Origin: Branchiostoma belcheri
Lineage: Eukaryota
Assembly (NCBI RefSeq): GCF_001625305.1
Contig: NW_017802379.1
Location: forward strand, 4,393,479 to 4,457,478
DNA length: 64,000 nucleotides
Reading direction: 5' to 3'
Position 1 is the stretch's first letter. Each line of letters opens with the position of its first letter. Both the position numbers and the translations under genes were made by a program. Shown here one piece after another: positions 22,101 to 62,839 of the stretch. Under the pieces are notes generated by a model that was given only the letters and a program-made list of their open reading frames with translations, searched no databases and was not told the origin of the DNA.

Positions 22101-25100
22101 TAGACTTCAAATCACACACAAACAGAGTGGTGGAACTTTGGGTTCATCAAAAGTTGTTTCAAACCAGTAAAGTCTGGCATTAGAATATGTTCAAACCAGG
22201 CTGAATAATTTCTTGTAATTCCGCCTAGGTTTGGGACTTGTTACAGGACCTGAGGAGAGGCTGGAATTGGAGGGGGAGTTGGGTAAACCGGCATTCCGAA
22301 TGGAGTGGAGCCATTTGAACTGTTTGTATTCCGTAGGAGATTCTGGTGGAGAGTTGGGAAGAGGAGGTAGGGGGGATTTCGGGGGTGGCGGAAATTTTCG
22401 CTTCTGGCCGGGGCTTCCTGGAGGTGATTGTATCACCGGAGACAAGACCTTTTTCGGCGGCCTCGGAGACCGCGGTCTACCATACGGGTATTTCAGGCAG
22501 AACGGCGGAGATGGCGGGGGAGAGAACTCCGAAATGGACGGGAGGAAATCCAAGTCTTTTGCGACAGGAATTGTCGACAGAATGTCGTCAGCCTTTTGTG
22601 AAAAGAGGTCTGGGAACGGCTCTTCAATTTTGCACTCCTTTTGCTTTTCAGGTGCTGATTTTGGCAGTTTGGAGCCTGCTGTCTCCATTTTAAAGTCAAT
22701 TTTTGGTTCTTTTGTTTCAGCCTTTATCCTGCTCCGAGGGGAGCGAGGGAGGCTGTTGGACTTTTGAGCCGGTGGGAGGACGTATGAGTAGTAGTGTTGG
22801 GGACGGTAGTACGGATCTGGAGTTTTGGTTCGGCGGAGGAGCGGACTTTTGCGCGACTGAGATTCTTGGAGGCTGCCGGGACACTTGGCTATCAACCACT
22901 GGGAAGAGAAGGTGGAGAGAGAAAGAGATGGAAGCACAGTGTTACTTAATGGACTTTTCTTTAGTGGAAACCAAGACACTCAGAAAGGAAAGAACAGAGA
23001 TGTACATATGGAAATGGCAGAAACGGGATGGAAAGTATAGGGAGAAGTTGTCTGACAGAAAGTCATGTTGACCTCAACACCTACCCAACTTTTTTCTTCA
23101 ATCTAGACGTTTTGCTGTTTTTATGCATTGCCTAAACAATGATGTTTATCGTTTTATACTTAAGGTTTGGCAGCAGCTTAGAAATGGTCCTAGTAACTTA
23201 AAGCTTGATTAATGAAGACAGCCTGTCTTCTTGTTAATTGTTTTAGTCAATATGTTTACACTTACCTGAGCTTTGTTTAATTTTATCAAAGCCTGTTACC
23301 ATCTGATTCAGTCCTTCTCAATCAAGCCATACTTCTTTGAACCATTATCTGGTAAAAGTGTAAATGGCCACATAAGCCAGTATATGTGAGGCTGCTTATC
23401 AATCAAGAACCACCAAGCCAATGAAGTTGTTTATGTCATAGATTTTGTGCTTATTGCATAAACTGAGCTCTTGCTTTAAAAAGTTAACAAAAGCTGTAGG
23501 ATGTCAAACATGGGGTTTCTATGTGGGACATGACTAAGGAAGAAAACATCAGTGTAGGTTCTACCAGGAGACCAACCTTCAGCGTGTCCCTCTCGTGCTG
23601 CACCTCCTCGATGGTGTGCTGCGTCTTCTCCTGGTGGTTGTTCAGTTCCTTCAGCTTCTTCTCCGCCTCCGCCAGCTTCCCGTTCAGGTCCGTCATCTCC
23701 GAGGTGCGCTTGCTGGTCAGCTCGTCGATCTCCTTCTGGTGGCTCTCCGTCAGCTTGCCGATCTTGGCGACGTGCTTCTGGACTTCGCTCTCCTGCGGAG
23801 GGAATGGCGGCGTGTCGTTGTTGCTACATGCTACTACATGACACCCCTGACTAGTAGGGACTTGTTGTTTTCTTTTTAGTGCTGTGTGTAGGAATTATCC
23901 ATCAATAGTAACTATCATGTATGTTACAGTTATTAGTCAGTAGTTATTGGGAAGAATCAAAGGGTGGGGACTAAGGTATTGATTCAGTATGGGAAGACAG
24001 ATTAGCATTGTGAAGGTAAAGATTTAGCCAAATTTAGAGGGAGGTCATGGGATAATCTTTTCCTTTTTCACTCCCAAAAATGGCATTATGATCTGTTTCT
24101 CAATCAAGTAAAAATTCTTTCCTTTAGTTTTGAACCTCACACAACTTAGTAGCTAGCTTAGAAGAAAATTACTGATGCTTGTCTTTGATATTTCATAATT
24201 CAAGAGAAATGACCTAATGATTCTTACCTTCAGGCAGATCAGCATTTTCTTCAATAAAAGCAAAACTTTTTTTTCTAATTCTTTACTAAAATGTAGTATT
24301 TTAGTTGCTAAACACACACTAACACTATCAATGTTGAAAAGTAAGCCTCTTTTATTGCAGTATTCACACTTTTCAGATAGATTGTCATACAGTTCATATT
24401 GCCTCTAACAATGTCATCCTCTGTTGGCACATAGTTCTTGCTACCTCTTACAATTTTTGACCATTTAATTCTATTTCTGAAAGTAACGAAGTTAATCAAG
24501 TCATTCATTTCTCCACACTTCTTCCTCGGTAAGACCTTTTCCTCAATCTTAAGCATCAGTGTATTCTTTCTACAGAAATGGACTTTATTTTGTTTCAAAT
24601 TGGAAAACCTCAGTCTGTTTTTGACATACCAAAGCTCGTAAGGCAACTAAGGTAGATGGCATCCCTCCTAAACCTTTCTCTTCAAAATATGACTACATCA
24701 TAAGTTACTGACAACCATTTTTTCATTATTTAAATTCTTAGATGGTTGCTTGCTTTGCTCTTGCATAGTAGTTCCTTGTTACGGAAACATTTAATACGAG
24801 CATGTAGTATAAATAGACTATTGCACGATTAGGACTATATCACGCAATACATGTACTGCTACTAGGTACATGTATGTATGAACATGTTGGAAAGACATCT
24901 GCCTCACAGTGCCAATTACTTCATCCACATACCCCATCACTCCTCCGATAATAGACTGATCCTGATTGTCCATCACAATTAGCGGATCGACCAATGACAA
25001 AGTAGCAATTATCGGTTTGACCAATGAGAGAGTGGCTACATTTCCATCAGATACTTGCATATGTATGTTTTGACGGAGGTGGGCAGACCTTTAGGATCAG

Positions 25101-37100: not shown

Positions 37101-40100
37101 CTTCTGTAGAATATGTTGAATTTATGCATTTAAGGTTCACTGTTGAGCATCTCTCTCAGAACACAAACTACAAATTTCACCGCAAATGTAAAGGTTTTCC
37201 ACACTTCTGTTTTTGAGACAGTGTCTGTGATAAAAGACAAGGAGAGAGAAAGGGAAGCCAACATTCCTTGATGTTTTTGATGACAACCATCCTGGCATCT
37301 TCAAGGTCCTGCAGTTTCTTTTCCTTCTCCTGCAGTAGTTCCTTAAAAGAGAGTAGATTTCCGGGGGTGAGAAGAAAGGAACTTTGGAGAAGGGGTACAA
37401 AGCAGAAGGTAGAGCCAAGCAGCACTTCAGAGGACATGTAAGTGGGAATTGTTTACATGTACTATGGCTGCAAGCAGGTAGAATAGCAATATGCACACTG
37501 CAAGCTTCACATCCCACTAATCTACATGTACAGGTATAACAGCCAAGCAGTTTTACCAGACAACTGTACCTGTAACTGTACTACTCAACCAGTATAAGTC
37601 AAACATTTTGCTCTGTTGTCCTAAGATAACACACCCCTTTGCAGGCACAAGGGAAGGCCAGTTTGAATATATTTTTGTGTACTACAGTTCGTCATACATA
37701 CATGTTTACCCTATTTGTCTGACAGATTGCTGATGTTACTCAAGCAAACTTTTTTTAAAAATCCTGGAGACCTGTCAGCTAGACTATAATTGATAATTCT
37801 TTTGACACTGCTTTTATACAACTTGAGTCGTGCATGGTTAAAGGCTTTCTCTCATTACTTGGAGAGAAGCTTGTGCAACAGACAGTACCTGCATGGCGTG
37901 TGTAGAGCTTCCTGTGGATGCCCGCGTCTTCCTGGCAGCAGCACGCAGTTCCTGAGCAAAATATGACAAAAATGATGAGATGTATAACAAAAATGATGAA
38001 GTTTACAATGATTTCAAGACCAGATAAGTGTATACATTGGACAAGATATCACCTAGGCATCTCTACTTCAAAATCACAAATGTGAACCCAGAATCAGTTA
38101 TTGTTGCCCTGAAGAAGGCAACAGACTACCATCAAAACATTGGATGTGAAAACCCACTGAACACACTCTCTTGACAACTTGATGAAATTATTCACAGACG
38201 CACTGTAGTTGTACTTACAGAGTGCCTTCCATAGCCTGATGCTGAGCTGATGTTGGAACTAATGGAGCTGATGGAGCTGCTGCTGCCACTGCGAGACCTG
38301 GCGCCTGGAGTACCGAGGGGAAGGGGTGGGGGCGCTTCTGACTGGGCTTTCCTGGCTGCTATTCTGGCAGCTGTTGCAGAGCCTACAATATACGCAAATT
38401 TCAATGTTTTACTCTTGGTGGTCATTTTAGGTGGTGAATGATATCACTATACTGGATAATAGAAAAATGCATCCATATTTATATCATAGCACACTTTTGT
38501 TTCAAATCCCACCTGGTACTGAGGCTTGTTTGGGTGTTGCCTTAGGCACAGGTTCCCCCTCCCCGAGAGGCTGGACCTTGTGCACCGGAGCAAACAGGCC
38601 GAACTTGGGCTTACAGGTGAAATATCTGTCATGGAACACAGGACGAAAAAATGTTATCAACTGCAATCAAAATTCAGAGGGAAACTTTTCACTTTTTCTT
38701 ATTTTCTCTTGATGTAGACATGCATGTACAATGTATTTGTAAGTTATAGAAAGATGTAATTATGAACGTACCTTACTACAGTTTCGTATATATGCACATC
38801 ATAAAGATTAAAGTCTCTTCTTTTGGGTAGTAACTACTAAGACAGATGCCTTTGGCATTCATTTTATTGGATGCAAATAATGAAAATTCATTGTTCCCTC
38901 TTGGCTTGAAACCATATGGAGACTTGGCACTTCAGCAGCAATAGTGTGGGAGTCATAATTCAACTTAAGTAGCATTACTAAAAGGTGACATTGAAACAGA
39001 GGGAAGGAAATGACTTTCATTCTCTTATCTCTTGTACTTAACTTTGATCATGACGTTTCAGAGATGCGGTAGCAGTTACATTCCTATCTACGTAACCCCT
39101 AAACTTGTACTGGAGTGGCCCATAAGTGGCCAATGAGTAGAAAAAAAACCCTCACCTCTTCCCTGCCACAGATCCGTCGTTCTTGCCCTGTTCCTCCTCC
39201 AGCTCCACCCCGACCCACTCCCCCTTGGCGAAGTCTGTCGTCCCCAGATACCTCACCAGACCTGCCTTCGTCCCACTGACCAGGACTCGGTCACCCAGAC
39301 TGAACAGTTCCTCCGCTTTCTTCCCGATGTCTACCAGACTAGTCATGGACACGCTGGGAGTTAGAGTCCCCATGCTGGATCCCGCTAACCGCTGTTTCAG
39401 ACTGGAAGATTTCGTTGACGTTGAAAGTCGACTGCTGGGTCTTTCTGTCGATTTTGACCCGTTAACTGCGTCGCCGGCTCCTCTCGAGGCAGAGCTTGAC
39501 GCCCGTGACCTTGCAGCGGCCGCGGACGGCACGCCTGCGGCAGCTCCTGGCGCTGCAGGCTCTCTGGTAAGTTTCGCAGCCCGTGAGAACACGCCGTGCT
39601 GCGGCGTACACTGGAAGTACCGCACGCCGGCCACGGAGCCATCGTTCTTTCCCACAGGTTCGTCCAACACGATTCCGACCCACTCACCTGGCGCGAATTG
39701 CGTTTCACCGATGAACTGGATATAACCGGCCTTGGTGCCGGCAACATACGCACGATCACCAATTTTCCACCCATCTGAAGATATAACAGAAGAGGCCGCA
39801 GCCTTAGTGGTGGCGGAGGCATACAAGCCTGTAAAGTGTTGTATGCCTGTAAGGTGAGTGTGGAGAGGAGAGAAGTTGAGGGTGTAAGTACGTCATGCAA
39901 AGAAAATAGTCCCAAGACAATGTGCAATTCTTGATGATTACATGCTTGTTTACATACTGTGATCATGCATCAACAACATGTACATTTACCGTAACCTTTA
40001 GCCCACAGATGTTGCCATTAATGCCTACCAAATCTCTATGGATTAGACAGTTAGGTGAAGGTTAAAATTAAACTAAATCATTTACCTTAACATCAAACAT

Positions 40101-41037
40101 GCTGTACATCAAAAGTGCGTAATTTATGGTAGCCATTACTTGTGGTTCATTTTTAAAGATTGAGACAGTGAAATGCATCTCCTTGTGCAATTTGTAAGAA
40201 TCATGCACTGTGCACCTTCAGGCCATTAACTAAAGCCATGCAATTCCTTTGTCCCTTTTATACCAAGGCAGAAATGGGCAGGCATGCCCTTTTGAAACAG
40301 ATACAGAGACAGGTTGTGCATGTGCATATAAATTGTACAGTTGGTAATAGAGCTGATGGTCTGTTTGAAATGACTGCATAATCCAGAGATAATGGGCTTC
40401 ACAATGGATGAGGATAGCACAGAGCTATTGCACTTCAGGACTGCCTACTCTGTAGTAGATAAAATGTGATATGTACACATATATGTCAAGAACATTGTGA
40501 CAAAACTCAAAATTGCAAAACTAAACTTATACTAGCTAACTTATACCAAATGTTCCATATAAATTATAATGCTGGTAATGATGAAAGAACAAATACAGAA
40601 ATTAAACATTGTACAACTGCCATAAAATGAGAAAAAAGGAACACAAAATATCACTATAACTATCAAAATACATGTACATGTAATCTTTTTTCTTAAAATA
40701 ACCAATTACAATGTAGGTAAGTCAGCAATAGAAACAGTACTAGTGCCACCTTAAGATATGCCATGATACACGCAATACAGGTTTGAGTCGTTCAAACTTT
40801 GACATGATAACCAGGATCAGTACTATATAACATGTTCTTACCTGCAGCTGCACCTTTTGCAGCACCTGGAGCACCCTTGCCAGCTCCAGCTGCAGTTTTG
40901 GCTGCACCTGCTGCACCTTTAGCTGCACCTGCCGCACCCTTAGCAGCTGTACCACCAGCCTTGGGGATGCCTGTGGCTCCAGGTTTGGCTATTTTACTGG
41001 GCGGTTTCAGCCCAGACGGTTTCCCTGTCGTACTCAT
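1026..41037 (-). CDS. CLIP-170-like CAP-Gly linker protein gene (gene-level span; at least 54 coding exons in window, 3' end beyond window start)
   Basis: Exon 1 starts [20 protein letters not shown], matching the CLIP-170 N-terminus. Two CAP-Gly domains with GKNDG motifs sit in the 39156-39828 exon, followed by Ser-rich linkers and a very long coiled-coil. Splice phases were checked consistent across most junctions. Exons in the window total about 6.8 kb of CDS with no stop. Confidence 0.8.
2105..2221 (-). CDS. CLIP-like 39-aa repeat exon
   Basis: Encodes [39 protein letters not shown]. Acceptor is ctttcag|CAA, donor AAG|GTGCCT. Confidence 0.75.
2375..2491 (-). CDS. CLIP-like 39-aa repeat exon (close paralogue of 2905-3021)
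   Basis: Encodes [39 protein letters not shown]. Acceptor is aatacag|AAC, donor AAG|GTATGG. Confidence 0.75.
2655..2848 (+). repeat. SINE-like dispersed repeat copy
   Basis: Has the same family blocks: GGCTTCCAG, TTCCCCCACCCATGTGCTGTCAA and CCACCCAAAACAATACTTCC. Confidence 0.5.
2905..3021 (-). CDS. CLIP-like 39-aa repeat exon
   Basis: Encodes [39 protein letters not shown]. Acceptor is tgaacag|AAC, donor CAG|GTATTT. Confidence 0.75.
3154..3270 (-). CDS. CLIP-like 39-aa repeat exon
   Basis: Encodes [39 protein letters not shown]. Acceptor is ccacag|CTA, donor AAG|GTTTGT. Confidence 0.7.
3431..3547 (-). CDS. CLIP-like 39-aa repeat exon
   Basis: Encodes [39 protein letters not shown]. Acceptor is gtgcag|CAA, donor GAG|GTCAGC. 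Confidence 0.7.
3900..4016 (-). CDS. CLIP-like 39-aa repeat exon
   Basis: Encodes [39 protein letters not shown]. Acceptor is ccccag|GCA, donor CAA|GTATGT. Confidence 0.75.
4133..4249 (-). CDS. CLIP-like 39-aa repeat exon
   Basis: Encodes [39 protein letters not shown]. Acceptor is ttctag|AAA, donor AAG|GTGAAG. Confidence 0.75.
4501..4617 (-). CDS. CLIP-like 39-aa repeat exon
   Basis: Encodes [39 protein letters not shown]. Acceptor is ttgacag|CAA, donor GAG|GTAAGA. Confidence 0.75.
4795..4998 (+). repeat. SINE-like dispersed repeat, full-length-looking copy (3' end CCACCCCAAACAATACTTCCATACC)
   Basis: It shares the blocks AATCCTTGGCTTCC(T/A)GAATTC, GTCATTCTGC(A/C)TGTCAATCTTCCCC, CCACCCATGTG and ACCCAAAACAATACTTCCATACC with copies at 2655-2848, 19430-19560, 49690-49797, 50630-50783 and 34898-34947. 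Confidence 0.55.
4995..5337. mobile_element. MITE-like non-autonomous DNA transposon (343 bp) with terminal inverted repeats
   Basis: The termini CTAGCAGGGTTAGACAAGT ... ACTTGTCCAACCCTGCCTAG form a 19-20 bp TIR with one mismatch. Alternatively a 15-bp TIR is flanked by a CCTAG direct repeat. The interior carries reiterated palindromic GGGCAAGT(A/G)AA hairpin motifs. It has no coding capacity and is intronic in the CLIP-like gene. Confidence 0.6.
5355..5471 (-). CDS. CLIP-like 39-aa repeat exon
   Basis: Encodes [39 protein letters not shown]. Acceptor is cttacag|CAA, donor AAG|GTGAGA. Confidence 0.75.
5620..5736 (-). CDS. CLIP-like 39-aa repeat exon
   Basis: Encodes [39 protein letters not shown]. 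Acceptor is ctttag|CAA, donor AAG|GTTGGT. Confidence 0.7.
5894..6010 (-). CDS. CLIP-like 39-aa repeat exon
   Basis: Encodes [39 protein letters not shown]. Acceptor is ttacag|CAA, donor AAG|GTATGT. Confidence 0.75.
6197..6313 (-). CDS. CLIP-like 39-aa repeat exon
   Basis: Encodes [39 protein letters not shown]. Acceptor is cccacag|GAG, donor AAG|GTTAGA. Confidence 0.75.
6590..6690 (-). repeat. Possible tRNA-derived SINE head fragment
   Basis: The minus strand reads ...GTGGAGTGTCTGCCTTGCATTTAGTAGATTGTTCGATCCCTGACTGAGTCA. It has a T-arm-like GTTCGATCC and an anticodon-arm-like segment. It is not a complete cloverleaf. Confidence 0.25.
6881..7018 (-). CDS. CLIP-like repeat exon (46 aa variant)
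   Basis: Encodes [46 protein letters not shown]. Acceptor is tcttag|ACT, donor TTG|GTAAGG. Confidence 0.7.
7404..7520 (-). CDS. CLIP-like 39-aa repeat exon
   Basis: Encodes [39 protein letters not shown]. Acceptor is ctccag|CAA, donor AAG|GTACTT. Confidence 0.75.
7600..7870. repeat. Intronic CCAAT-rich repeat cluster (reiterated CCAATCAGCACCAAGG units)
   Basis: There are at least 5 degenerate copies of (A/G)CCAATCAG(C/T)ACCAAGGACA(G/A) interleaved with GACCCAATCTGCAAAATG(C/T)TGA(G/A)GTTGACCAATCAG. The same composite recurs at 8735-9015 and 10480-10610 within the exon-repeat array. Confidence 0.6.
7976..8092 (-). CDS. CLIP-like 39-aa repeat exon
   Basis: Encodes [39 protein letters not shown]. 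Acceptor is ttacag|AAA, donor GAG|GTGAAT. Confidence 0.75.
8230..8346 (-). CDS. CLIP-like 39-aa repeat exon
   Basis: Encodes [39 protein letters not shown]. Acceptor is gaatag|CAA, donor AAG|GTTAGT. Confidence 0.75.
8509..8625 (-). CDS. CLIP-like 39-aa repeat exon
   Basis: Encodes [39 protein letters not shown]. Acceptor is aaacag|CAA, donor AAG|GTGAGG. Confidence 0.8.
8735..9015. repeat. Intronic CCAAT-rich repeat cluster (second copy)
   Basis: Begins CTATGGTGACAATTGACAAATCAACATCAAGCTACTAGCTAATCAGCAGCAAGG...GTTGACCAATCAGCACCAAGGACAG... Confidence 0.6.
9028..9144 (-). CDS. CLIP-like 39-aa repeat exon
   Basis: Encodes [39 protein letters not shown]. Acceptor is gaacag|TTA, donor GAG|GTAAGA. 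Confidence 0.75.
9304..9390 (-). CDS. CLIP-like repeat exon (29 aa variant)
   Basis: Encodes [29 protein letters not shown]. Acceptor is ttctag|GCT, donor GAC|GTAAGT. Confidence 0.7.
9563..9709 (-). CDS. CLIP-like repeat exon (49 aa variant)
   Basis: Encodes [49 protein letters not shown]. Acceptor is tttgcag|CAA, donor CAG|GTAGGG. Confidence 0.75.
9928..10044 (-). CDS. CLIP-like 39-aa repeat exon
   Basis: Encodes [39 protein letters not shown]. Acceptor is tttcag|AAA, donor GAA|GTGAGT. Confidence 0.75.
10315..10431 (-). CDS. CLIP-like 39-aa repeat exon
   Basis: Encodes [39 protein letters not shown]. Acceptor is caatag|CAA, donor GAG|GTACAT. Confidence 0.75.
10480..10610. repeat. Intronic CCAAT-rich repeat cluster (third copy)
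   Basis: Contains CTATGGTGACAACATCAAGGTGGTAGCCAATCAGCACCAAGG...ATCCAATCTGCAAAATGTTTGGGTTGACCAATCAGCACCAAGGACAAG. Confidence 0.6.
10737..10853 (-). CDS. CLIP-like 39-aa repeat exon
   Basis: Encodes [39 protein letters not shown]. Acceptor is caacag|CAA, donor GAG|GTTGGT. Confidence 0.7.
11647..11763 (-). CDS. CLIP-like 39-aa repeat exon
   Basis: Encodes [39 protein letters not shown]. Acceptor is ctaatag|CAA, donor GCG|GTTTGT. Confidence 0.7.
12072..12188 (-). CDS. CLIP-like 39-aa repeat exon
   Basis: Encodes [39 protein letters not shown]. Acceptor is tcatag|CAA, donor GAG|GTCAGT. Confidence 0.7.
12649..12765 (-). CDS. CLIP-like 39-aa repeat exon (117 bp, phase 0)
   Basis: Encodes [39 protein letters not shown]. 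Acceptor is caacag|CAA, donor AAG|GTACAT. Confidence 0.75.
13459..13551 (-). CDS. CLIP-like exon 27 (31 aa, GC-rich)
   Basis: Encodes [31 protein letters not shown]. Acceptor is acgcag|TTC, donor CAG|GTGCGT. Confidence 0.7.
14103..14219 (-). CDS. CLIP-like exon 26 (117 bp, GC-rich)
   Basis: Encodes [39 protein letters not shown]. Acceptor is gctcag|GCC, donor AAG|GTTTGC. Confidence 0.7.
15132..15224 (-). CDS. CLIP-like exon 25 (31 aa)
   Basis: Encodes [31 protein letters not shown]. Acceptor is aatag|GCT, donor CAG|GTACAT. Confidence 0.7.
16007..16123 (-). CDS. CLIP-like exon 24 (117 bp, 39 aa)
   Basis: Encodes [39 protein letters not shown]. Acceptor is aaccag|GAA, donor AAG|GTTGGG. Confidence 0.7.
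16345..16465 (-). CDS. CLIP-like exon 23
   Basis: Encodes (I)[40 protein letters not shown]. Acceptor is taaacag|A, donor AAG|GTAAAC. Confidence 0.7.
18074..18180 (-). CDS. CLIP-like exon 22
   Basis: Encodes [35 protein letters not shown](+2). Acceptor is cccag|CTC, donor AT|GTGAGT. Its phase matches the 121-bp exon 23. Confidence 0.7.
18471..18608 (-). CDS. CLIP-like exon 21 (5' boundary approximate)
   Basis: Encodes ...([10 protein letters not shown])[36 protein letters not shown]. Donor is GAG|GTAATG. The acceptor is ambiguous between caatcag|GTT and others. Confidence 0.45.
19171..19374 (-). CDS. CLIP-like exon 20 (68-aa coiled-coil, GC-rich)
   Basis: Encodes [68 protein letters not shown]. 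Acceptor is ccatag|GAA, donor GAT|GTACGT. Confidence 0.7.
19430..19560 (+). repeat. SINE-like dispersed repeat copy (5' part)
   Basis: Contains AATCCTTGGCTTCCAGAATTAAC...GTCATTCTGTCTGTCAATCTTCTCCCACCCACTTGCTGTCAAC. Confidence 0.5.
21131..21168. repeat. Microsatellite (GTTT)n
   Basis: Reads gtttctttgtttgtttgtttgtttgtttgtttg. A short imperfect copy at 21140-21170 was also seen in ORF 21098-21310. Confidence 0.9.
22191..22905 (-). CDS. Ser/Pro-rich ORF nested in a CLIP-like intron, same strand: candidate alternative terminal exon or nested gene
   Basis: About 238 codons preceded by an excellent minus-strand acceptor (cttccatctctttctctctccaccttctcttcccag|TGG) and ending at TGA. It is CpG/GC-rich, unlike the flanking intron. 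The low-complexity protein has SPxxSP, PPPPKSP and YYRP motifs. Confidence 0.35.
23577..23792 (-). CDS. CLIP-like exon 19 (72-aa coiled-coil, GC-rich)
   Basis: Encodes [72 protein letters not shown]. Acceptor is ctccgcag|GAG, donor AAG|GTTGGT. Confidence 0.75.
27064..27229 (-). CDS. CLIP-like exon 18 (coiled-coil)
   Basis: Encodes (K)[55 protein letters not shown]. Acceptor is catcag|A, donor ATG|GTGAGG. Confidence 0.75.
27759..27847 (-). CDS. CLIP-like exon 17
   Basis: Encodes [29 protein letters not shown](K). Acceptor is cttccag|GAG, donor AA|GTGAGT. Confidence 0.7.
28229..28296 (-). CDS. CLIP-like exon 16
   Basis: Encodes (E)[22 protein letters not shown]. Acceptor is ccacag|AG, donor CTG|GTATGA. 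Confidence 0.65.
28616..28699 (-). CDS. CLIP-like exon 15
   Basis: Encodes (E)[27 protein letters not shown](+1). Acceptor is ttcacag|AA, donor CTG|GTGAGT. Confidence 0.7.
28815..28872 (-). CDS. CLIP-like exon 14
   Basis: Encodes [19 protein letters not shown](+1). Acceptor is taacag|AAA, donor AAG|GTAAGG. Phase 1 out. Confidence 0.65.
29226..29495 (-). CDS. CLIP-like exon 13 (90-aa coiled-coil, GC-rich)
   Basis: Encodes [90 protein letters not shown]. Acceptor is ctccag|GCC, donor ATG|GTAAGA. Confidence 0.75.
30166..30195 (-). CDS. CLIP-like exon 12 (30-bp micro-exon, tentative)
   Basis: Encodes [10 protein letters not shown]. It has a good acceptor with a polypyrimidine tract (ttgttaag|GTT) and donor AAG|GTAAAA. 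It keeps phase 0 between exons 11 and 13. Confidence 0.45.
31219..31323 (-). CDS. CLIP-like exon 11 (coiled-coil)
   Basis: Encodes [35 protein letters not shown]. Acceptor is ctaacag|ACA, donor CGG|GTAATG. Sequence is GC-rich. Confidence 0.7.
34786..34846 (-). CDS. CLIP-like exon 10
   Basis: Encodes (R)[20 protein letters not shown]. Acceptor is tttttag|G, donor GAG|GTAAAA. Confidence 0.65.
34898..34947 (+). repeat. SINE-like repeat 3' fragment
   Basis: Contains CACCCAAAACAATACTTCCATACC only. Confidence 0.4.
35124..35227 (-). CDS. CLIP-like exon 9 (coiled-coil)
   Basis: Encodes [34 protein letters not shown](R). Acceptor is tttgcag|TAT, donor AG|GTACAG. The 2-base overhang pairs with the next exon. 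Confidence 0.7.
35439..35480 (-). CDS. CLIP-like exon 8 (42-bp mini-exon)
   Basis: Encodes [14 protein letters not shown]. Acceptor is attgcag|TCT, donor AAG|GTGAGA. Confidence 0.65.
35726..35824 (-). CDS. CLIP-like exon 7 (coiled-coil)
   Basis: Encodes [33 protein letters not shown]. Acceptor is ccaacag|GAG, donor GAG|GTGCGA. Phase 0 at both ends. Confidence 0.7.
37288..37341 (-). CDS. CLIP-like exon 6 (tentative; donor uncertain)
   Basis: Encodes [18 protein letters not shown] after a cttttaag|GAA acceptor. The only in-phase donor is the weak ATG|GTTGTC, so the 3' boundary is uncertain. Confidence 0.35.
37889..37951 (-). CDS. CLIP-like exon 5
   Basis: Encodes [21 protein letters not shown]. 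Acceptor is gctcag|GAA, donor CAG|GTACTG. Phase 0 at both ends. Confidence 0.75.
38219..38382 (-). CDS. CLIP-like exon 4 (Ser-rich linker)
   Basis: Encodes [54 protein letters not shown]. Acceptor is ttgtag|GC, donor TCT|GTAAGT. The frame is continuous with its neighbours. Confidence 0.8.
38513..38625 (-). CDS. CLIP-like exon 3 (end of second CAP-Gly domain)
   Basis: Encodes (R)[37 protein letters not shown](G). This matches the conserved [17 protein letters not shown] region of CLIP-170. Acceptor is gacag|A, donor CAG|GTGGGA. Confidence 0.85.
39156..39828 (-). CDS. CLIP-like exon 2: two CAP-Gly domains plus Ser-rich linker
   Basis: Contains [59 protein letters not shown] and [48 protein letters not shown]. 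Acceptor is ttacag|GC, donor AG|GTGAGG. Phases link to exons 1 and 3. Confidence 0.9.
40842..41037 (-). CDS. CLIP-like exon 1 (start codon 41035-41037)
   Basis: ATG followed by [64 protein letters not shown]. Donor is G|GTAAGA, phase 1. An upstream in-frame stop is present. The Ala/Gly/Lys-rich N-terminus resembles CLIP-170. Confidence 0.8.
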
Positions 41038-44000: not shown

Positions 44001-46619
44001 CTAAAGAAAGAAGACTCTTTCATCCGGATGATTCACACTTGAGCTGACTCATTAATGTCAATGGCATCGCCCTTCCCACTGTTAGATACACCACATGTTG
44101 GGCTGGGCAGATGACACATGGGGACAGGATGGCTCCACCAAGGTCATACAAGGTCATTATCAAACATACCACAAGGTCAAAGGTCACAGTTGGGCTGACT
44201 CTAATATCTACTGATTATGTACATCATGCACAAATATTCAAAATGCTTTTACACTTCAACTTAACACTCAATACTTTTTACACCTGTTTTCATAAATCAA
44301 TCCCCAAAAAACAAATTGTATCTTACGATTCACTTGCAAAACTGGCATGGCATTGGCACTGACACTGGCATTTATTACTGTACCATGTTTAACATGCACG
44401 CCTATAAAATACCTCACTCCAACTAGGCCAAAGGTTGAAGCGAGAAAAGTACTTGACATGTACGTGACCATGATTCTCCACCAGTCCTGTTTTTTGTTGA
44501 CCTCTTTCATACACCTGAATCTCTATAGCCTATACCTCTTGACCAACGCAGGCAGGACTATGGGATTGGTCTGCAGCTGGAAATTGTTTTTGATGCGATC
44601 TGTTCAGCTCATGAGATCTATGCAAATTCAATTACTGCAGGAACAATCATATTTAGATGCTGACTATTGGGCTGGTGTATAAAGAGCATGTATTCTAAAA
44701 GAGATTACCATTTGTTAAGGTGACAAAAAATCCTGTAACTGGCATGGAAGTTTTTTAAAGAATAGAATTTTAAAGCATGTCCTAGTGTTATTTTTTCTTT
44801 CCATTGTCACAAATTCCTTCCTTACCAGTCCCTTTTAGAACTTTTGATCCTGATCTATTATTGATTATTAAGGGACAAAAGCTTCCTGTGATTTGGGCTC
44901 CTGGTAATACAGGTAATCTAAGGTCAGTAAGTCCACAGTTCAAAAGACAAGCAAACAAACCTGAACAATACCTTCAGCCTCAGGTTTGAAAGAAGTACAT
45001 ATAACTTGTAAGCCTTGAATTGCCTAGGATAGCTTTGAAGTTTGACAGATAAAGATAACATTTAACAAGTTCAGACAGTTGTCATAGACTCACTGCTTCT
45101 GCTTTTAGTAGTGTTAGTAACAACTTACCGTACCATATCAATAGCTGGAGTCAGGATTGAAGAGGCTACTGTAAATTGTGAAATTGTTGCTGTGATTTAA
45201 TTTTTGTGGTTTTCACAGTGACCTCTCCAATGCAAAGCCAAGACCCTGTGACTTTGTCATCTTTGGGTACCATCAAAATTTTGGGTACCATCAAAATATG
45301 TATACCAAGAGTCAAAAGATACAGGTTATCCCATTGTTAAACAATTAGCACCACCATACTTGCGGTTCAAAGGTTCAGAAGAGATGCCGTCATTATGCAA
45401 TCCCCTCTATCACAAGATCAGTCACAAGTCAATACTGCTATCTGTGTCCTTTCAAAGCAGCCATGCTAAGCCTACGGTAACTGCATACTAATGGTGACAA
45501 TTTCATGTCTTCTTGAGAAGGCGACCAAGCAGTAGCAATTACCACGGACATTTGTCTCCGGACTGTATGTGTAACATCGCCAATAGGGATCAATACTTAA
45601 CAGATGTCACCCTTGAAAGAACAATAAAGCACCTAATATGATCATGTCATACACAATTATTCTTAATTTTCAAACTTAATGACCCTTCTGCTCATTACAC
45701 CCCCTTGCCACTAGAGGATGCAACTGCTTTGTGACCAAATTTTGTCAGATAGCTTCAGGAATTTCAAAGGAGTTTTTTTGTGTGTTTTGTTGTACAGTAT
45801 TTTAAATCATATTTCTATGTATTGTGTATCATTTTCCAATCACAAAATCAGGGGTCACACAAACCCAATTTTTATTGCTCCATGGTTAATCAGTCATCAA
45901 TCATTGCCTAGTTTTAAATACCATCAATGAATAACATTGAATTTTCTGCAACACAATATTAAACAGACACTGTACAGTCCACGTAGTTTCAAATTCAAGC
46001 CTACAACTTTGTTCTAAAGAATTATTCAGAGCTAGTAATATCCCTCAATCATTTGTAGAAGCATTATGCAGGCCAGGGGGTCTCAATGTGGAAACTGTGT
46101 AATCTTATTAACATCAGGAGTGTAGATAAACCAATCAACTATAAAGCACACGAGATTTCTCCAGTGTCACTGACGAAAGGTAGTGGATGCTACCTAAAAT
46201 GTCACACACGATGACATGACACTCACACACACATTGTCACACATTTCAAAACATCAATAATAACATCAAAACATCAATTCATGACATCATATTCTAGATC
46301 CCGTGGGATATCATCATAAAATTCAAAATGGTTTTCATATATGTTGCCTTCTTGTACACAAATTATGTCAGGAATGGTGGAAGAGAGTAAACAAAGCAGC
46401 TCCCCGGCTTCTAAACATAGACGTGACAAACAAACGTCATCAAGTCTGGCCCCAGGTCAGACGTCAAGATGTTGTTTTGGAAAGGAACACCAACTGTATA
46501 GTTTTTTACGGGAACACTACAGGCTTTAAATAAGGCAGTTTAACTACAGTAGTGTTCTATACAGATGGTCAGGTATTAAGGCAAACTAACGATTTGGGTG
46601 CAGCGCTTCCTTTGGGAAT

Positions 46620-47400
46620 ATTACATTTACGACACGTGAATATTGAAAGTTTTTGGCAACCTTGATAGACCAGAACGACTCGGCCTACGCCCCCCTCCCC
46701 CTTCACGTACCCGGACATCCCTGCTTCCACACATCAATCTGGTACGATAACCGCCTGTCAGGGACGGTCTGGGGTTACCATCCGTAACAATGAACCTTCT
46801 GTACAATAAAACAATCCACTCACGTCTTCGTGAAGCTTTGGAAACTTTCCAGGCGGCTGGTAAATTCTTGTGATCGCTGAAATCCGGGGATAGGTGCAGA
46901 CGGACAGATTCTTCGAGCACCGACTTTCGAAGGTAAATCCAGCGTTAGAAAGCCCTCGACAACAACAGCTGCTAGAATGGGCTATCTACGACGTATAAAT
47001 GAGCTACAAGGCTTTCAATCCTACGGCTCCTTCGTCCAAATCGTCTTTACATTAAGCAAAATATGACTAAAACTCTAAATCAGGTGATTACACCACCCTC
47101 TAGTGGCCATTTTCTGGGTCAGCCTTATTACACACTTGGCGCTCTCCGTCGGATTACTGCGCGACCGTACACCTGAGTGTTAATACGCGGATTGACGTTA
47201 ATGAGTACGTCTTTTGTGGGCCTTTTCTCAGTCGATGGCCGTACTCCACGCATATCTATGGGATATTTGCTCATAAAAAGCAATATTTTCCTTGTCAAAC
47301 TCGATACGTCGAGTTTTACGAGAAGCAACAGTGGTTGGAAATTACAAGTGTTGATGCACAGCGCCCTCTAGTATGGCAGAACATACTGCAGTCCATAAAA
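46620..47400. promoter_or_regulatory. CpG island; candidate promoter and non-coding first exon of the CLIP-like gene
   Basis: This is a dense CpG block in otherwise CpG-poor DNA. A minus-strand consensus donor (ACG|GTGAGTGG; exon 3' end at 46824) points toward the CLIP-like ATG exon 5.7 kb downstream. There is no coding signal. No other gene start lies nearby. Confidence 0.4.
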
Positions 47401-49351
47401 TTCGTCTGCAAAGCCATTCCAGGCTGGAAGGCAATCATATTGAGATTTCTTTGTTGATCTACATGCTTACTTCCATACACGAAAATACATCAAATAAATG
47501 ACATGACAACACAGTTGGTTCTCAATACACCATAGTATATTTTTTTCGGCTGCACCATTTTGTATCAGACACATCTACCAGTATCAATCATCTTTTCGTT
47601 CAGATCATTCAGATGTAGCGTTACATTGGATGCCATGAACATATTCATGCCATATTGTGTTTTATTCCATTTCCTTCATCACTGGCCTATTTTCGGCATT
47701 TCAGTACCAAAACCTCTTGATGGAAGTACAATCCCTTGTTCCAGTTTCCTAACTAATAATGTAACTAATGCCACCGTATGAAGTATTGCAACCGAGCAGT
47801 CCAAAGCATCAAGCAAAGTATGCCACAATCATATTTGTATGGCTCATATCAAGACTTATAAATAAGACAAAATGTTCCTCCATCATCTTCAGACAATTCA
47901 ATAAAAAATAACAACTGGCATTGTCTGTCATTTTCTTCTTAACCAAAAATGGATTGACGATTTCCTTTTTCCAAGAACGTCATTACCTGTGCCTTTTAGC
48001 AGCCTTTTACAATATGTCTAGCTGTTTTAGTTCTGCTTACAGTTTTGTCCAAATTACAATCTTGTGTTGTCTTACAGCTTTTGACATACAGCATATAACA
48101 GATCTTACCATGTTGCCTAGCATACACTCATTTCAAGGCTGCACAATGCTTGCATTACTGGCTCACCTTCACAATACTTGGTCACACACATGGACATACA
48201 CTTGCAGATTTGACATGGCTGTACAATGATATCATGGTACACGAATGTAGAACATGTTCCGCTTGCTGTATCTCTGGTATGGCTTGGCACACTGATTTCC
48301 ATACAAAACCCCTATGGACTAGTCAACACCACTGACTTAAGACTGACTTAAGACTGATACTTGATATCCCAAACCTCAACAATGGTCATACACTGTGACT
48401 TAAATAAGCAACCTAAACCGTATGGAGGCACTTCCTAGAACCAAGTGATGTCTTGGTACACTACCAGTAATAATATAGTTACTTAGTAACTGTTGACAGT
48501 ACAGCAGAATGAACTAATACATTGGCTGATAAAAATTGGAAAGATTTTTTTACGTGGATTTTGATTGACGGTCAATCTTAATTCCAAAAGTATATACATG
48601 AATAACCTGTGACAAAAAAATTGTTAGATAGGATATGAAGAAGGCCAGTGGGTTGAAGAGTCCAATTTGAAAGGTTTCAGTAGAATTTCCTAGTTTAAGT
48701 CCGCAAAGAGGACTCCTGGTAGTGAACTGTCAATACCATGATAACAGTAACTGAGTCAGTTACTGTTATCGTCGTAGTGAGAATGATATGTCTGGGAAAT
48801 TTGGAAGCAGTGATTTTTATCTACACGAACCTATCTACATCAAGATAAGCAACCAACAGAACAATCAGATAACTCTTGTCACTTCAAATTTATTCCGTAA
48901 TTCTTTTTTTTTCTCTTCAATTTCCTACAACTCCACACCACACTATGTAATAGCTCCATCATTCTCACTTTTGACTTTTATAGTACAGTACTATTTGAAG
49001 AGCTTTCCATATTAAAGGAGGCTTCTGTTTGCCATTGCACTTGCTTCAAGTAAATTCATTTTCACTTCAGACTCTTTTCTTTCCAAATTTGAAGTGAACA
49101 CATAAATTGTTTCAACTGACTTGCATGAACGGCTTTGGAGCTTGCTTTGCTTTGCAATCAATCAATAAATCATTTGCAGGTTTCAAGTTTAACTTTTCTT
49201 GTGCCTACCGACCAAGCATGGTAAGTCATACATGTACAGAACACACAGCTTCCTGCTGTATTTGCGTTTTACTTTTTTTACTTCTCATTTGTTGCGATGA
49301 CTAACATTTGCGGCATGACTGGTCACGTCAACACTGGCACCATGCAACACG

Positions 49352-55400: not shown

Positions 55401-56686
55401 CATGTCTAGCAATAAAATGTAATGTGTTTTACCTTTTGGGTACATTCAGTAACAAGCAGAAATAAAATCATCTTTCAGCACTGTTGCATCAATCATACTA
55501 GTCAAACTGCACTCACTACTTCCCTATCAACAACCTAATATTGCATCACAATGACACAACATTCCACTAACCCACCTCGTCACATCTCCCGGGATTGTAA
55601 TCACTAGTATTGCATCTGGACCGTGGGCGCTTGTCAAAGGACCTGTCAAATGGCTTAGTCTTCTGTGTCTGAGGCCGCCTCCCCTGGCCCAGACCGCCGG
55701 GTCGCGGTCGGCTGCCATAGTTTGGTTCTCTCTTCCTGTCGTATTTGGGGCCTGTATTTCCTCGGCCTTTGCCATTCTCTGAAATAGTAAGTACAATGTA
55801 TTTGTATGTGTACATTTTGTACTTATGTTCACTGTAGCCACAAAAAAAGAAGAGATAGTCACTGAGTAAAATTTTTAGTCAGTACAGTATGATTTAACCA
55901 TGTTGGATTACAGTGTATGTCTTCTTATGTCTGTTAAAAATTCAACATGCTTCTGCTGTGACACACTTAATTACCCAACAACAATTCCTGCTGGATATTC
56001 AAATTATAATTACATTGTATTGTGACATCTAAGAAAAACCCCTATTCATTGTGTTTATCACAGGACCTATAGAAAACCAGTTACAGTCTTCTTTGTTGTT
56101 ACCGGTATACCCAGGTAGCACAGATTCAAAGTCCAAGGGGGTGTGTCCCTTACACCTGCTTCAGGTTTTGGGTCGGTCAGGGAAATTTGGATCTTTGAAA
56201 ATGACAACACGTTTGGTTCACACATCATGCACAGCATGTTATTATTTAGGCCGTAGGGTTGCGTTCACACGTAACAATCACTGCAACGACACACTTGAAG
56301 TCACGAAAACATCCGGGTTGGTATGCTGACTGTACAGTTTTCCAATCAACAGGTGCAGACCAGTACAGTATATGCGAGTTACACAAACACAATCCAGAGA
56401 AATTGTTTCAATCCAAGCAAAATATGTATCCTTTAATCGACAGTTTCATAATGACCCACTTCTTTAGAAGTATTTGAAAAAGAAATGAGAAGACAGAGTT
56501 GTTGTTTTTTTTTTCGTGACGACCATGACATGGCCTAAATATTTTTGTGTCGCCGTGTTGCGAACCAGCCGAAAACATACCTTGTTTTCCACTCTTATTC
56601 CCATCCTGCGATTGCCCCTTGGTGGGCCCTGCAGACGGAGAACGACCAGAAGACTTTCTTTCCATTTGTTCCGGAGTATCTACCAT
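49352..56686 (-). CDS. RNF10: RNF10 orthologue (RING finger protein 10), gene-level CDS span, 18 exons
   Basis: Colinear similarity to RNF10 along the whole protein. The RING reads [43 protein letters not shown]. Other matches are [61 protein letters not shown] and the C-terminal [13 protein letters not shown]-stop. All 17 introns have GT-AG boundaries and consistent phases. Confidence 0.9.
49690..49797 (+). repeat. SINE-like dispersed repeat copy (in RNF10 last intron)
   Basis: Contains GTCATTCTGCCTGTCAATCTTCCCC...CCACCCAAATCAATACTTCCATACC. Confidence 0.5.
49830..49970 (-). CDS. RNF10: RNF10 exon 17
   Basis: Encodes (V)[46 protein letters not shown](+1). Compare human [29 protein letters not shown]. 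Acceptor is tctacag|TT, donor CAG|GTAAAA. Confidence 0.85.
50206..50272 (-). CDS. RNF10: RNF10 exon 16
   Basis: Encodes [22 protein letters not shown](+1). Compare human MLRVGKAKADVWPKTAPKKDEN. Acceptor is ttacag|ATG, donor AAG|GTAAGT. Confidence 0.85.
50387..50508 (-). CDS. RNF10: RNF10 exon 15
   Basis: Encodes (G)[40 protein letters not shown]. Compare human SPFPSFAQ. Acceptor is ctgtag|GT, donor CAG|GTAAAG. Confidence 0.8.
50630..50783 (+). repeat. SINE-like dispersed repeat copy (in RNF10 intron 14)
   Basis: Contains TGTCATTCTGCCTGACAATCTTCC...CCCAAAAACAATACTTCCATACC. Confidence 0.5.
50844..50990 (-). CDS. RNF10: RNF10 exon 14
   Basis: Encodes (Y)[48 protein letters not shown](+1). Acceptor is acgtag|AC, donor CAG|GTCAGT. 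Confidence 0.75.
51128..51232 (-). CDS. RNF10: RNF10 exon 13
   Basis: Encodes (D)[34 protein letters not shown](+1). Compare human DDIEKRKRQRQKKAREERRRERR. Acceptor is ccccag|AT, donor AAT|GTATGT. Confidence 0.8.
51527..51644 (-). CDS. RNF10: RNF10 exon 12
   Basis: Encodes [39 protein letters not shown](+1). Compare human [28 protein letters not shown]. Acceptor is tttgcag|GAT, donor ATG|GTGAGA. Confidence 0.85.
51761..51838 (-). CDS. RNF10: RNF10 exon 11
   Basis: Encodes [26 protein letters not shown]. Compare human REYGSLERSPEKISATVVEI. Acceptor is gttgcag|GAG, donor GAA|GTGAGT. Confidence 0.85.
52070..52125 (-). CDS. RNF10: RNF10 exon 10
   Basis: Encodes (A)[18 protein letters not shown]. 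Compare human AEDGQHMFLHPVNVRCLV. Acceptor is ctgcag|CT, donor AAG|GTAAGA. Confidence 0.85.
52342..52684 (-). CDS. RNF10: RNF10 exon 9 (acidic, contains a 17-aa tandem duplication)
   Basis: Encodes [55 protein letters not shown]...[14 protein letters not shown](+1). Acceptor is cctcag|CCT, donor AAG|GTATGA. Compare human SPCYYFYQ. Confidence 0.8.
53148..53333 (-). CDS. RNF10: RNF10 exon 8
   Basis: Encodes [62 protein letters not shown]. Compare human PESCFIEAAIQELKTREE. Acceptor is gtttag|TGC, donor AAG|GTGAAA. Confidence 0.8.
53441..53556 (-). CDS. RNF10: RNF10 exon 7
   Basis: Encodes (D)[38 protein letters not shown]. Acceptor is tttcag|AT, donor GAT|GTAAGT. Confidence 0.85.
53742..53890 (-). 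CDS. RNF10: RNF10 exon 6
   Basis: Encodes (S)[49 protein letters not shown](+1). Acceptor is ttccag|T, donor ATG|GTGAAT. Confidence 0.85.
54247..54431 (-). CDS. RNF10: RNF10 exon 5 (RING finger)
   Basis: Encodes [61 protein letters not shown](+2). Acceptor is ttgcag|CGC, donor AG|GTCTCT. Confidence 0.9.
54598..54688 (-). CDS. RNF10: RNF10 exon 4
   Basis: Encodes (N)[30 protein letters not shown]. Matches human [31 protein letters not shown]. Acceptor is tcttag|C, donor GTG|GTGAGA. Confidence 0.85.
54969..55183 (-). CDS. RNF10: RNF10 exon 3
   Basis: Encodes [71 protein letters not shown](+2). Acceptor is ccacag|GTA, donor AA|GTAAGG. Confidence 0.85.
55576..55778 (-). CDS. RNF10: RNF10 exon 2
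   Basis: Encodes (E)[67 protein letters not shown]. Matches the RNF10 RYNRKRE...RRDE region. Acceptor is tttcag|AG, donor GAG|GTGGGT. Confidence 0.85.
56581..56686 (-). CDS. RNF10: RNF10 exon 1 (ATG 56684-56686)
   Basis: Encodes [35 protein letters not shown](+1). ATG context is tccATGG. Donor is AAG|GTATGT. A CpG promoter lies upstream. Confidence 0.8.
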
Positions 56687-56699
56687 GGACAATGAACGA

Positions 56700-57600
56700 C
56701 TTGGGCAAAAACGCCGCTCCAAATGTTGGAGAGACTCGACCAGCACTCGACTTCATCTTTTTACAGCTTCATCTTGACTCAACCTAGATACCCAAAAGAA
56801 AACAACTTCTCTCCAATGCAGAAGAGCAGTTGAATAATAAATTCAACGGGGTAGGAAGGAAAAGAATGCGAAGAAGTAACTGGGGGTGAATTGTCCCCCA
56901 ATTACACGCTTATTACCCCAAAATTTGGGGCAAAACACGGAGGAAAATTACAACTCTCCCTCCAAGATGGCGCTTCCCTGCCGGTATGTAAGTATCCCGG
57001 ATGTCTCGCGAGGTCTCGTCACAAAGACGTCTGCAGTTCTCGCGAGATAAAATACTGCGCCCTGATTGGCTGTCAACTGAGCGCAGAATTTCAAAGTTTG
57101 TTGATGCTGCTCCTGTGAAAACCACAAGGTCATTTCCTGCAGATTTCGCCGAATTTGTGGGTAAATGTTACATTCTATTCTAGTATCAAAGAGATCATGA
57201 GCATCAGAAAGTCCTAGAGTCGCTATTGATAGCGTCTTGATACTCAGATTGTATTTCAGAAGCTTCCAAATAGCTTGATAATTTTGATGCTCCTGTCTTG
57301 ACGTCTCTTTACTATGGCCTTTGGCTTTAGGCCTTTGGGGCTGCCCCGTGTGGAACAAATTATAGTACTTTTTCGTCCATTGCCTCACAAGTTAGTAGAC
57401 CGACAGATTTTAAGTAGAAAGATAGATATACGCTTTCTTGTAAAGAGTAGCCTTGCATCTTGTATGATAGGATTTATGCAGGCTGAAAATATGGTAATAC
57501 TAATGCTGTGGTATTTAAATTTTGGACACATGCATCACATATTAATATAATGCTTTGTTGCTAACTGTAAAGCATAATGTCCCATATCAATTCCTGCTCA
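56700..57600. promoter_or_regulatory. Bidirectional CpG-rich promoter region shared by RNF10 (minus) and the 57610 gene (plus)
   Basis: A head-to-head gene pair has its start codons 924 bp apart. Local CpG density is high relative to the flanks. Confidence 0.55.
57038..57047. promoter_or_regulatory. TCTCGCGAGA core promoter motif (perfect palindromic copy) in the RNF10 / plus-gene bidirectional promoter
   Basis: Exact TCTCGCGAGA at 57038-57047, with a second 9/10 copy TCTCGCGAGG at 57004-57013. An inverted CCAAT box (gattggctg) sits at 57064-57072. The region lies between the RNF10 ATG (56686, minus strand) and the plus-gene ATG (57610), and is CpG-rich. Confidence 0.6.
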
Positions 57601-62270: not shown

Positions 62271-62450
62271 TCAGGCCTGAGTATCGTCCTGTCCAGAGAA
62301 GGCGCTGAAGTGGGCGGGAGTGGCATATTCAGTGGTCGGAGTGATCTCGGCCTCCACCTTGACCTGTGAGCTAGACACTTCGGGAGTACGGGGGATGGAT
62401 TCCACGCTGATGCCATTTTCACGGAGAGTCTTTCTCAACAGGTCGATTTC
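62271..62450 (-). CDS. Terminal coding exon of the same minus-strand gene (stop 62271-62273)
   Basis: Encodes EIDLLRKTLRENGISVESIPRTPEVSSSQVKVEAEITPTTEYATPAHFSAFSGQDDTQA-stop. Acceptor is ctttcag|GAA, phase 0, continuing the previous exon. Confidence 0.55.
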   Translation of the reverse strand, partial: EIDLLRKTLRENGISVESIPRTPEVSSSQVKVEAEITPTTEYATPAHFSAFSGQDDTQA

Positions 62451-62839
62451 CTGAAAGTACAGAACAGGTGAATGGAATAAGTGAGTTCACGGTTCCAACT
62501 GTGCATGCGCAAGGTCAAACGTAAAGGTCCTGACTTGTAACAGTTCTTGCTAATACAGTTCTCGCAAGCTCATGCATTGATCACTGTCCACACGTACGGT
62601 CAACACATTCGCGAATAACAGTTCTTAACCTTCTCCCGGCTGAAGTAGGGTTTAGGCATCAAATTTGTATTATAGGATTAGAGCAGGGGGGAAAAGGTTA
62701 AAAATCAATAAGGCAACATTGTCACTCTGACAGAAGAACCACATTTTAAGGCCTTCCTGGTGACTATTTCCTGCCCTATCAAAGCTTGTAGAACCTGCAG
62801 TGTTCTAAGAGGAAAAGTTATCACAGTGTACATGCGTAC

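Follow-up and report, generated by a model that had tools for sequence, protein, structure and literature searches.

A CLIP-170/CLIP-190-like gene of Branchiostoma belcheri and the apparent expansion of its coiled-coil rod by tandem 39-codon exons

Does one gene account for both the paired CAP-Gly domains and the very long coiled coil encoded on the minus strand of a 64,000-nucleotide (nt) stretch of Branchiostoma belcheri DNA (contig NW_017802379.1, positions 4,393,479 to 4,457,478; hereafter the window, numbered from its first letter), and if so, what has made its rod so long? An earlier reading of the letters alone (the sequence-only reading) had assigned the locus to a CLIP-170/CLIP-190-like protein. 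In CLIPs, Ser-rich regions flank two CAP-Gly domains, after which come a long coiled coil and a pair of zinc knuckles (PMC2172020); Drosophila CLIP-190 and invertebrate CLIP1-like/restin homologs are likewise built of a head, a rod and a C-terminal tail (PMC4395129). The gene described here is very probably a CLIP-170/CLIP-190 (CLIP1) orthologue and a single minus-strand gene, of which the window holds the 5' 41 kb with the start codon at 41037, as obtained by locating splice-site strings and assembling the exons. This assignment follows from two CAP-Gly domains with the GKNDG motif, best matches to CLIP-170, a CLIP-170-like N-terminus, basic linkers and a colinear rod. A CLIP-170 orthologue is a known kind of gene, named automatically in most animal genomes, and this is one more member. 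Its unusual trait, to judge from the exon sequences, appears to be a lineage-specific expansion of the rod by ancient tandem duplication of one symmetric 117-bp exon.

Head exons 1-5 (41037-37889, minus strand) splice in frame into 403 residues. Pfam recognized two stretches of CAP_GLY (PF01302) in this head (E = 2.8e-53), the check that had been proposed for the N-terminal 400 residues or so, and no other Pfam family was found in the 403 residues. Among PDB chains, the best matches were human CLIP-170/Restin CAP-Gly 1 (2cp5, E = 4.3e-35) and CAP-Gly 2 (2cp6, E = 3.1e-34); the CLIP-115 CAP-Gly structures scored 1e-31 and 1e-28, CLIPR-59 1e-24 and the dynactin-1 chains 1e-15 to 1e-16. This match to CAP-Gly and CLIP-170 lies far beyond chance. 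In the same search the first 26 residues aligned with the CLIP-170 N-terminus, KPSGLKAPTKILKPG, which bears out the likeness claimed for exon 1. The KPSGLKxPSKI motif is kept and the family pattern M-S-x-x-K-P-S-G-L-K-x-P-S/T-K-I is found in full; the motif also stands at the extreme N-terminus of salamander, scallop and priapulid orthologues, reading MSQKPSGLRPPSKL in Priapulus and MSLPRPSGLKAPSKIGKP in Ylistrum.

The CAP-Gly domains, in both of which the GKNDG motif is intact, are surrounded by Ser-rich basic regions as described for the CLIP family (PMC2172020). Serine plus threonine amount to 31% of linker residues 153-242 (isoelectric point, pI, 10.9) and 27% of linker residues 308-403 (pI 11.6), so that the GKNDG signature and the Ser-rich linkers of the sequence-only reading are both found; the pI of the whole head is 10.2. 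Residues 1-85 (pI 10.5) are Ala/Gly/Lys-rich instead of Ser-rich. Vertebrate CLIP-170 (CLIP1, restin) shares the KPSGLKxPxKI N-terminus, the two GKNDG CAP-Gly domains (60-70% identical) and the Ser-rich linkers, whereas the Ala/Gly/Lys-rich tract of exon 1 is replaced by a Ser/Thr/Pro-rich one in vertebrates and in the other CLIP orthologues fetched.

All five head exons lie on the minus strand. Exon 1 (41037-40842, 196 bp) contains the start codon, with an in-frame TAA four codons upstream, the CLIP N-terminus, a TGIP motif (residues 22-25, SxIP-like) and, just after the latter, the Ala/Gly/Lys-rich tract of 45 residues, which is (GAAK)n-like and coded in 40842-40950. Exon 2 (39828-39156, 673 bp) encodes CAP-Gly 1, a Ser-rich linker and positions 1-47 of CAP-Gly 2, so that the GKNDG motifs of both domains fall in it; exon 3 (38625-38513, 113 bp) supplies the final 18 positions of that domain and the start of the third linker. 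CAP-Gly 2, which spans Pfam profile positions 1-65 at residues 243-307, is thus interrupted by the exon boundary at residue 289/290. The earlier view that both domains sit in one 673-bp exon is therefore right as to the size of the exon and as to CAP-Gly 1, but CAP-Gly 2 is not complete there. The residues quoted for exon 3 and the other sequence strings quoted with them are all present in the window. Exon 4 (38382-38219, 164 bp) encodes a basic Pro/Ser-rich linker, and exon 5 (37951-37889, 63 bp) ends the head and exits in phase 0, with the coiled coil next; the succession of Ser-rich linker and coiled coil is thus as had been described. Exon 2 has a second in-frame acceptor at 39846, 18 nt upstream of 39828, which extends it to 691 bp (the two strings read ..ccttacag/GCATAC..ctttacag/GCTTGT). 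The choice between them adds or omits six residues (IQHFTG) ahead of CAP-Gly 1, and on their sequences either acceptor seems equally possible.

Searches for relatives placed the head in the same family. In a large protein collection only one close relative was found, P0001 (UniParc UPI000186272F; 414 amino acids, 82% identical), all other matches to the head being at most 60% identical. This entry is listed solely in UniParc; its accession range is reminiscent of the 2008 Branchiostoma floridae models, from which it may come. The exon-2 product, compared with 1.84 billion representatives, matched CLIP1-like, restin-homolog and CLIP-190 proteins of many phyla, none of these representatives exceeding 60% identity to it, and no gene record was found for P0001 or for the exon-2 open reading frame (ORF). 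Exon 2 was covered in tblastn with P0001, the Saccoglossus kowalevskii CLIP1-like protein P0108 and P0056. P0001, a model from a related species, lacks 19 linker residues of exon 2 (window 39380-39450, minus), and the 57 nt that code for them are bounded by GT and AG. The gap could be an artefact of the gene model, such as a predicted mini-intron, or else a true indel. The identification as such matters little, UniParc already containing a partial model from a close relative. In the literature, nothing was found on a CLIP gene in cephalochordates or on exon arrays in CLIPs.

The rod was modelled with an exon-chaining script that used splice-site score, open frame, coiled-coil composition and phase consistency, and the chain was refined by homology and by a repeat profile. 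The model comprises 52 exons and 2231 amino acids in the window. The sequence-only reading had counted more than about 2270 amino acids, which proved somewhat too many, the difference being a handful of doubtful mini-exons. Twelve unique rod exons (35824-23577, minus) code for residues 404-857. The first five (35824-35726, 35480-35439, 35227-35124, 34846-34786 and 31323-31219) are matched by P0001, which runs from the CAP-Gly region into the rod with 91-100% identity over these five exons (tblastn segments 35827-35726, 35486-35439, 35230-35123, 34848-34780 and 31326-31207). With CAP-Gly and rod sequence thus united in P0001, the separate transcript between 29500 and 37900 that the sequence-only reading had named as the case against it can be set aside. 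The other seven (29495-29226, 28872-28815, 28699-28616, 28296-28229, 27847-27759, 27229-27064 and 23792-23577) come from the chaining and are colinear with P0108. This is the best match to the rod, a partial protein of 689 amino acids that stops before the array region; it is colinear with model residues 436-861 (38% identity, E = 2e-71), and its alignment has no gaps over the junctions 31219/29495 and 27064/23792. Four mini-exons proposed by the script (30195-30166, 25252-25216, 24476-24452 and 24285-24228) were discarded on account of this gap-free alignment. Residues 6-573 can be aligned with a reptile CLIP1 (47% identity). At its start the rod shares long identical stretches with vertebrate CLIP-170, both proteins having a long coiled coil. 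Alignment thus supports the gene model from the ATG through exon 23792-23577, and makes head and rod exons one gene at least down to 23577, with a long central coiled coil that is colinear with known CLIP rods up to residue 861.

Three more unique rod exons, obtained by chaining (19374-19171, 18558-18472 and 18180-18074, minus), code for residues 858-989. The first of them has a good acceptor, directly follows a stop codon and contains no Met, and is therefore taken to be internal. The last ends in phase 2 and enters the first repeat exon (16465-16345), a junction by which the array that follows belongs with the unique rod. Two exons of the script (21347-21240 and 12536-12489) were dropped for poor coding scores (3.8 and 1.8, respectively).

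It is in this last part that the rod departs from other CLIPs. Thirty-one repeat-type exons, spread over 16465-2105 on the minus strand and coding for residues 990-2191, each encode one 39-residue coiled-coil unit. Running in the direction of the gene, these are 16465-16345 (121 bp), 16123-16007, 15224-15132 (93 bp), 14219-14103, 13551-13459 (93 bp), 12765-12649, 12188-12072, 11763-11647, 10853-10737, 10431-10315, 10044-9928, 9709-9563 (147 bp), 9390-9304 (87 bp), 9144-9028, 8625-8509, 8346-8230, 8092-7976, 7520-7404, 7018-6881 (138 bp), 6313-6197, 6010-5894, 5736-5620, 5471-5355, 4617-4501, 4249-4133, 4016-3900, 3548-3432, 3270-3154, 3021-2905, 2491-2375 and 2221-2105. Exactly 117 bp is the size of 25 of the 31, the other six being those with sizes in brackets. 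All exit in phase 0 and all but the first also start in phase 0. The neighbouring 147-bp and 87-bp exons (9709-9304) add up to 2 x 117 bp, and the intron between these two units appears to have slid by 30 nt when compared with all the other units. Following the repeat-profile scan, exons 14219-14103 and 12765-12649 were added to the model, and a 36-bp exon of the script (11763-11728) was replaced by the full 117-bp exon 11763-11647.

The repeat profile, built from 22 copies, matches the minus strand only and within 18153-2105; save for one weak match (E = 0.32), all of its matches fall within 16440-2105. Mean identity between copies is 47% at the nucleotide level and 27% at the amino-acid level (74% for the best pair), and the introns that separate the exons are unrelated to one another. 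Old, diverged copies and unrelated introns are not what an assembly artefact or a recent duplication would leave. For the same reasons the array went undetected by Tandem Repeats Finder. When the protein is compared with itself at a shift of 39 residues, identity reaches 0.24, the background being 0.10. In column profiles, positions 9, 13, 16, 23, 27 and 30 of the unit stand out as strongly hydrophobic, the residues around the exon junctions being polar and charged, and the consensus is roughly Q.QKE.EELQKKI.ELE.EK..LQKEL...K.E.E.K.K. Thirty-nine residues equal five heptads plus four, which gives one stutter per unit. In all, the 31 tandem exons contribute about 1160 residues to the rod.

The rod in the window reaches at least 1828 residues, compared with about 1000 in vertebrate CLIP-170, and the profile found no 39-residue single-exon repeat in the vertebrate sequences compared. 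The statement that the protein is far longer than vertebrate CLIP-170 holds against the canonical form of about 1400 amino acids but not against predicted vertebrate CLIP1 isoforms of 2113 (Ambystoma) and 2250 amino acids (Pseudophryne), so that length alone is not unprecedented. Internal repeats were seen in the rods of other CLIPs as well, with periods of 81 and 67 in Cylas, 111 in the pea aphid, 169 in Uloborus and 14 and 39 in Priapulus; several such lineage-specific repeats indicate that expansion of the rod by internal repeats is recurrent in the family. These invertebrate repeats differ from the 31 single-exon units of 39 residues in period, sequence and scale. In the Priapulus caudatus CLIP1-like protein P0133, residues ~837-1000 form four tandem 39-residue repeats, whose LQKQL core occupies the same place within the unit as here. 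An hhalign comparison of the Priapulus units with the repeat of the window gave a probability of 9.9%, which is not significant, and the two may reflect convergence or a very old common origin. A 559-residue rod query retrieved no protein at E <= 0.001 and missed even P0108; word-based search seems to fail on coiled coils, and for this reason the blank says little about homologues of the rod.

At the far end, the last exon seen (1145-1026, minus, 120 bp, starting and ending in phase 0) resembles a coiled coil without belonging to the repeat type, and its frame is still open, as had been stated; no further coiled-coil-like open segment was found at positions 1-1026. In all full-length orthologues fetched, a long rod leads into two CCHC knuckles and a C-terminal DDETF/ETY motif, and the gene is accordingly expected to continue past its rod. 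Zinc knuckles and ETF, known from vertebrate CLIP-170, are not seen in the window here. The vertebrate paralogue CLIP-115 (CLIP2), whose rod has about 700 residues and which lacks a Pro-rich tail, is equally similar in its head and in the first part of its rod; the 3' end of the gene lies beyond coordinate 1, and its product may be of the CLIP-170 or of the CLIP-115 type. An eight-residue look-alike of zinc knuckle 2, CPLCEVFG at 26077-26054, has stop codons on either side and was rejected as noise.

The intron 23577-19374 (4.2 kb) contains a 262-codon Pro/Ser-rich open frame (22979-22191, minus). An acceptor at 22898, ttctcttcccag/TGG, is in phase 0 and in frame with exon 23792-23577, and would define a candidate alternative 3' terminal exon (22898-22191, minus) of 235 Pro/Ser-rich codons with a stop at 22191. 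Local GC content (0.49) and the observed-to-expected ratio (o/e) of CpG (0.70) are both raised over the frame. Long antisense ORFs overlap it (22191-22979), which suggests that composition bias adds to its length. No Pfam family, homologue or exact record was found for the frame in our searches. On the minus strand, 20050-21240 is A-rich and of low complexity (plus-strand AT skew -0.21), with (CAAA)n near 21170 and many AATAAA; it could hold polyadenylation sites.

Three other accounts of the locus were weighed. That the head belongs to another CAP-Gly protein (CLIPR-59/CLIP3/4, p150Glued/dynactin-1 or a multi-CAP-Gly protein) is hardly credible: CLIP3/4 and multi-CAP-Gly proteins do score high with the head, but the mere presence of CAP-Gly domains accounts for this. 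CLIPR-59, CLIP3 and CLIP4 have N-terminal ankyrin repeats and no long coiled coil; here the rod exceeds 1800 residues and is colinear with CLIP1-like proteins, and there is neither an ankyrin domain nor room for one, given the in-frame stop before the ATG and the CLIP-170 N-terminus. p150Glued/dynactin-1 has a single CAP-Gly domain, as against two here, and the dynactin-1 matches lie 20 orders of magnitude below those of CLIP-170. A division into two genes is improbable on the evidence below, yet it touches the weak link of the single-gene model, namely the inferred continuity across the 4.2-kb intron, where the putative Pro-rich exon is the sole plausible gene boundary in the window. A CLIP-115-like gene (the head and some 450 rod residues) would then end with 22898-22191, and a separate coiled-coil-repeat gene starting within 22191-19374 would own the array. 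The in-frame acceptor and the closing stop, the several AATAAA in the A-rich tract downstream, the end of homology at residue 861 and a possible Met-containing exon (21347-21240) all speak for such a division. However, that exon codes poorly and is not coiled-coil-like, exon 19374-19171 looks internal because of its strong acceptor, adjoining stop and lack of Met, and the Pro-rich frame is without a homologue. Furthermore, CpG o/e is 0.18-0.28 across 19.5-22 kb, with no CpG-rich island there and hence no sign of an internal promoter, and all full-length invertebrate orthologues fetched have the long rod and zinc knuckles, the form expected of a lineage that predates the duplication. Were a transcript to stop at the Pro-rich exon, it would share with CLIP-115 the lack of zinc knuckles.

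The remaining account keeps one gene but makes the array partly a set of cassette, mutually exclusive or decayed exons, with proteins nearer 1400-1700 than 2231 or more amino acids; we regard it as unlikely, if worth bearing in mind. Symmetric phase 0 exons, any subset of which stays in frame, agree with it, as do the irregular members of 93, 93 and 138 bp and the donors, 10 of 31 in the array having a pyrimidine at +3 (GTT/GTC) as opposed to 1 of 20 among the unique exons. Weak donors fit some alternative use but prove nothing. On the other hand, all 31 exons are open and keep the hydrophobic pattern at 47% nucleotide identity, which argues for long-term selection on each copy; the 147-bp and 87-bp pair makes sense only when spliced together, and vertebrate CLIP1 predictions also exceed 2000 amino acids. 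Several points nevertheless weigh against a single CLIP-170-type gene that uses the whole array. The exon borders are predictions from a simple chaining script and homology. Beyond residue 861 no homology was found, composition and heptad-like periodicity being the sole guides there, and the repeat profile matched none of 265 CAP-Gly homologues, 23 of them long orthologues. The rod (1828 residues) has no proline and a pI of 5.0, but the script penalized proline, so that its absence is partly circular and does not count as independent evidence. Some array exons may, with their weak donors, be skipped or dead, and the Pro-rich exon with its stop at 22191 could end a shorter transcript or gene. 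Finally, no zinc-knuckle exon was found in the window, tblastn with eight C-terminal tails giving only noise (E > 0.4) and a six-frame scan of the window for the CCHC pattern giving nothing, as the sequence-only reading had placed this tail outside the window.

Taken as a single CLIP-170/CLIP-190-like gene, the locus should encode, by analogy with the family, a dimeric plus-end tracker working as other members do. At plus ends the CLIP head binds EB1; the tail, which carries ETY/F, is autoinhibitory and binds Lis1 and p150 (PMC4395129), and the C-terminus binds the head and p150Glued (PMC2172020). By extension, the protein would dimerize through its rod, and its CAP-Gly domains would bind the EEY/F tails at the C-termini of EB proteins and of alpha-tubulin, from which tracking of growing plus ends would follow. 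The Ser-rich stretches would add electrostatic affinity for the lattice and serve as targets of phosphorylation. The zinc-knuckle/ETF tail, presumably encoded beyond coordinate 1, would fold back on the head in autoinhibition and recruit dynactin and LIS1.

If all exons are used, a fully coiled rod would measure about 270 nm at 0.148 nm per residue. The rod of CLIP-170, at about 135 nm, is roughly half as long. Since the exons of the array are symmetric, skipping them would keep the frame, and rod length could, speculatively, be tuned by splicing. A rather doubtful proposal is that the 31 symmetric exons form a splicing-tunable length module giving isoform rods anywhere between about 90 nm and over 270 nm in length, to which the Pro-rich exon would add a tail-less, constitutively open isoform. 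A variable rod would set the reach from the tip to cargo or to the autoinhibitory tail, and would permit or bar the fold-back of head on tail. No description of such an exon-array 'ruler' for a plus-end tracking protein was found in the literature. Were the array fully expressed, it would be a natural experiment on how rod length bears on CLIP autoinhibition and on the linking of tips to cargo; were it alternatively spliced, it would show in compact form how the number of exons can code for length in a coiled-coil protein. The useful yield of the analysis lies in the corrected exon map, the unity of head and rod, and a rod that, with its repeat exons, would be more than twice the canonical length.

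The rest of the window was also surveyed, and no Rfam family or tRNA was found in it. The window as a whole is strongly depleted of CpG. A CpG-rich patch at 46000-48000, 5-7 kb upstream of the ATG exon, has an o/e of 0.8-1.0 compared with a window median of 0.28, and is the only island in the window to reach the flagging threshold (o/e 0.9). The patch may contain the promoter and a non-coding first exon of the present gene, or else a neighbouring gene may have its promoter there. Lesser CpG peaks occur at 56000-57500 and 62000-64000. On the plus strand, a 138-codon ORF (58534-58950) includes a poly-proline stretch (PPPPPPYPPP) and gives a sub-threshold Pfam match to Mito_fiss_reg (E = 0.037; 14.7 bits, the cut-off being 26.3), and could belong to a neighbouring gene as one of its exons.

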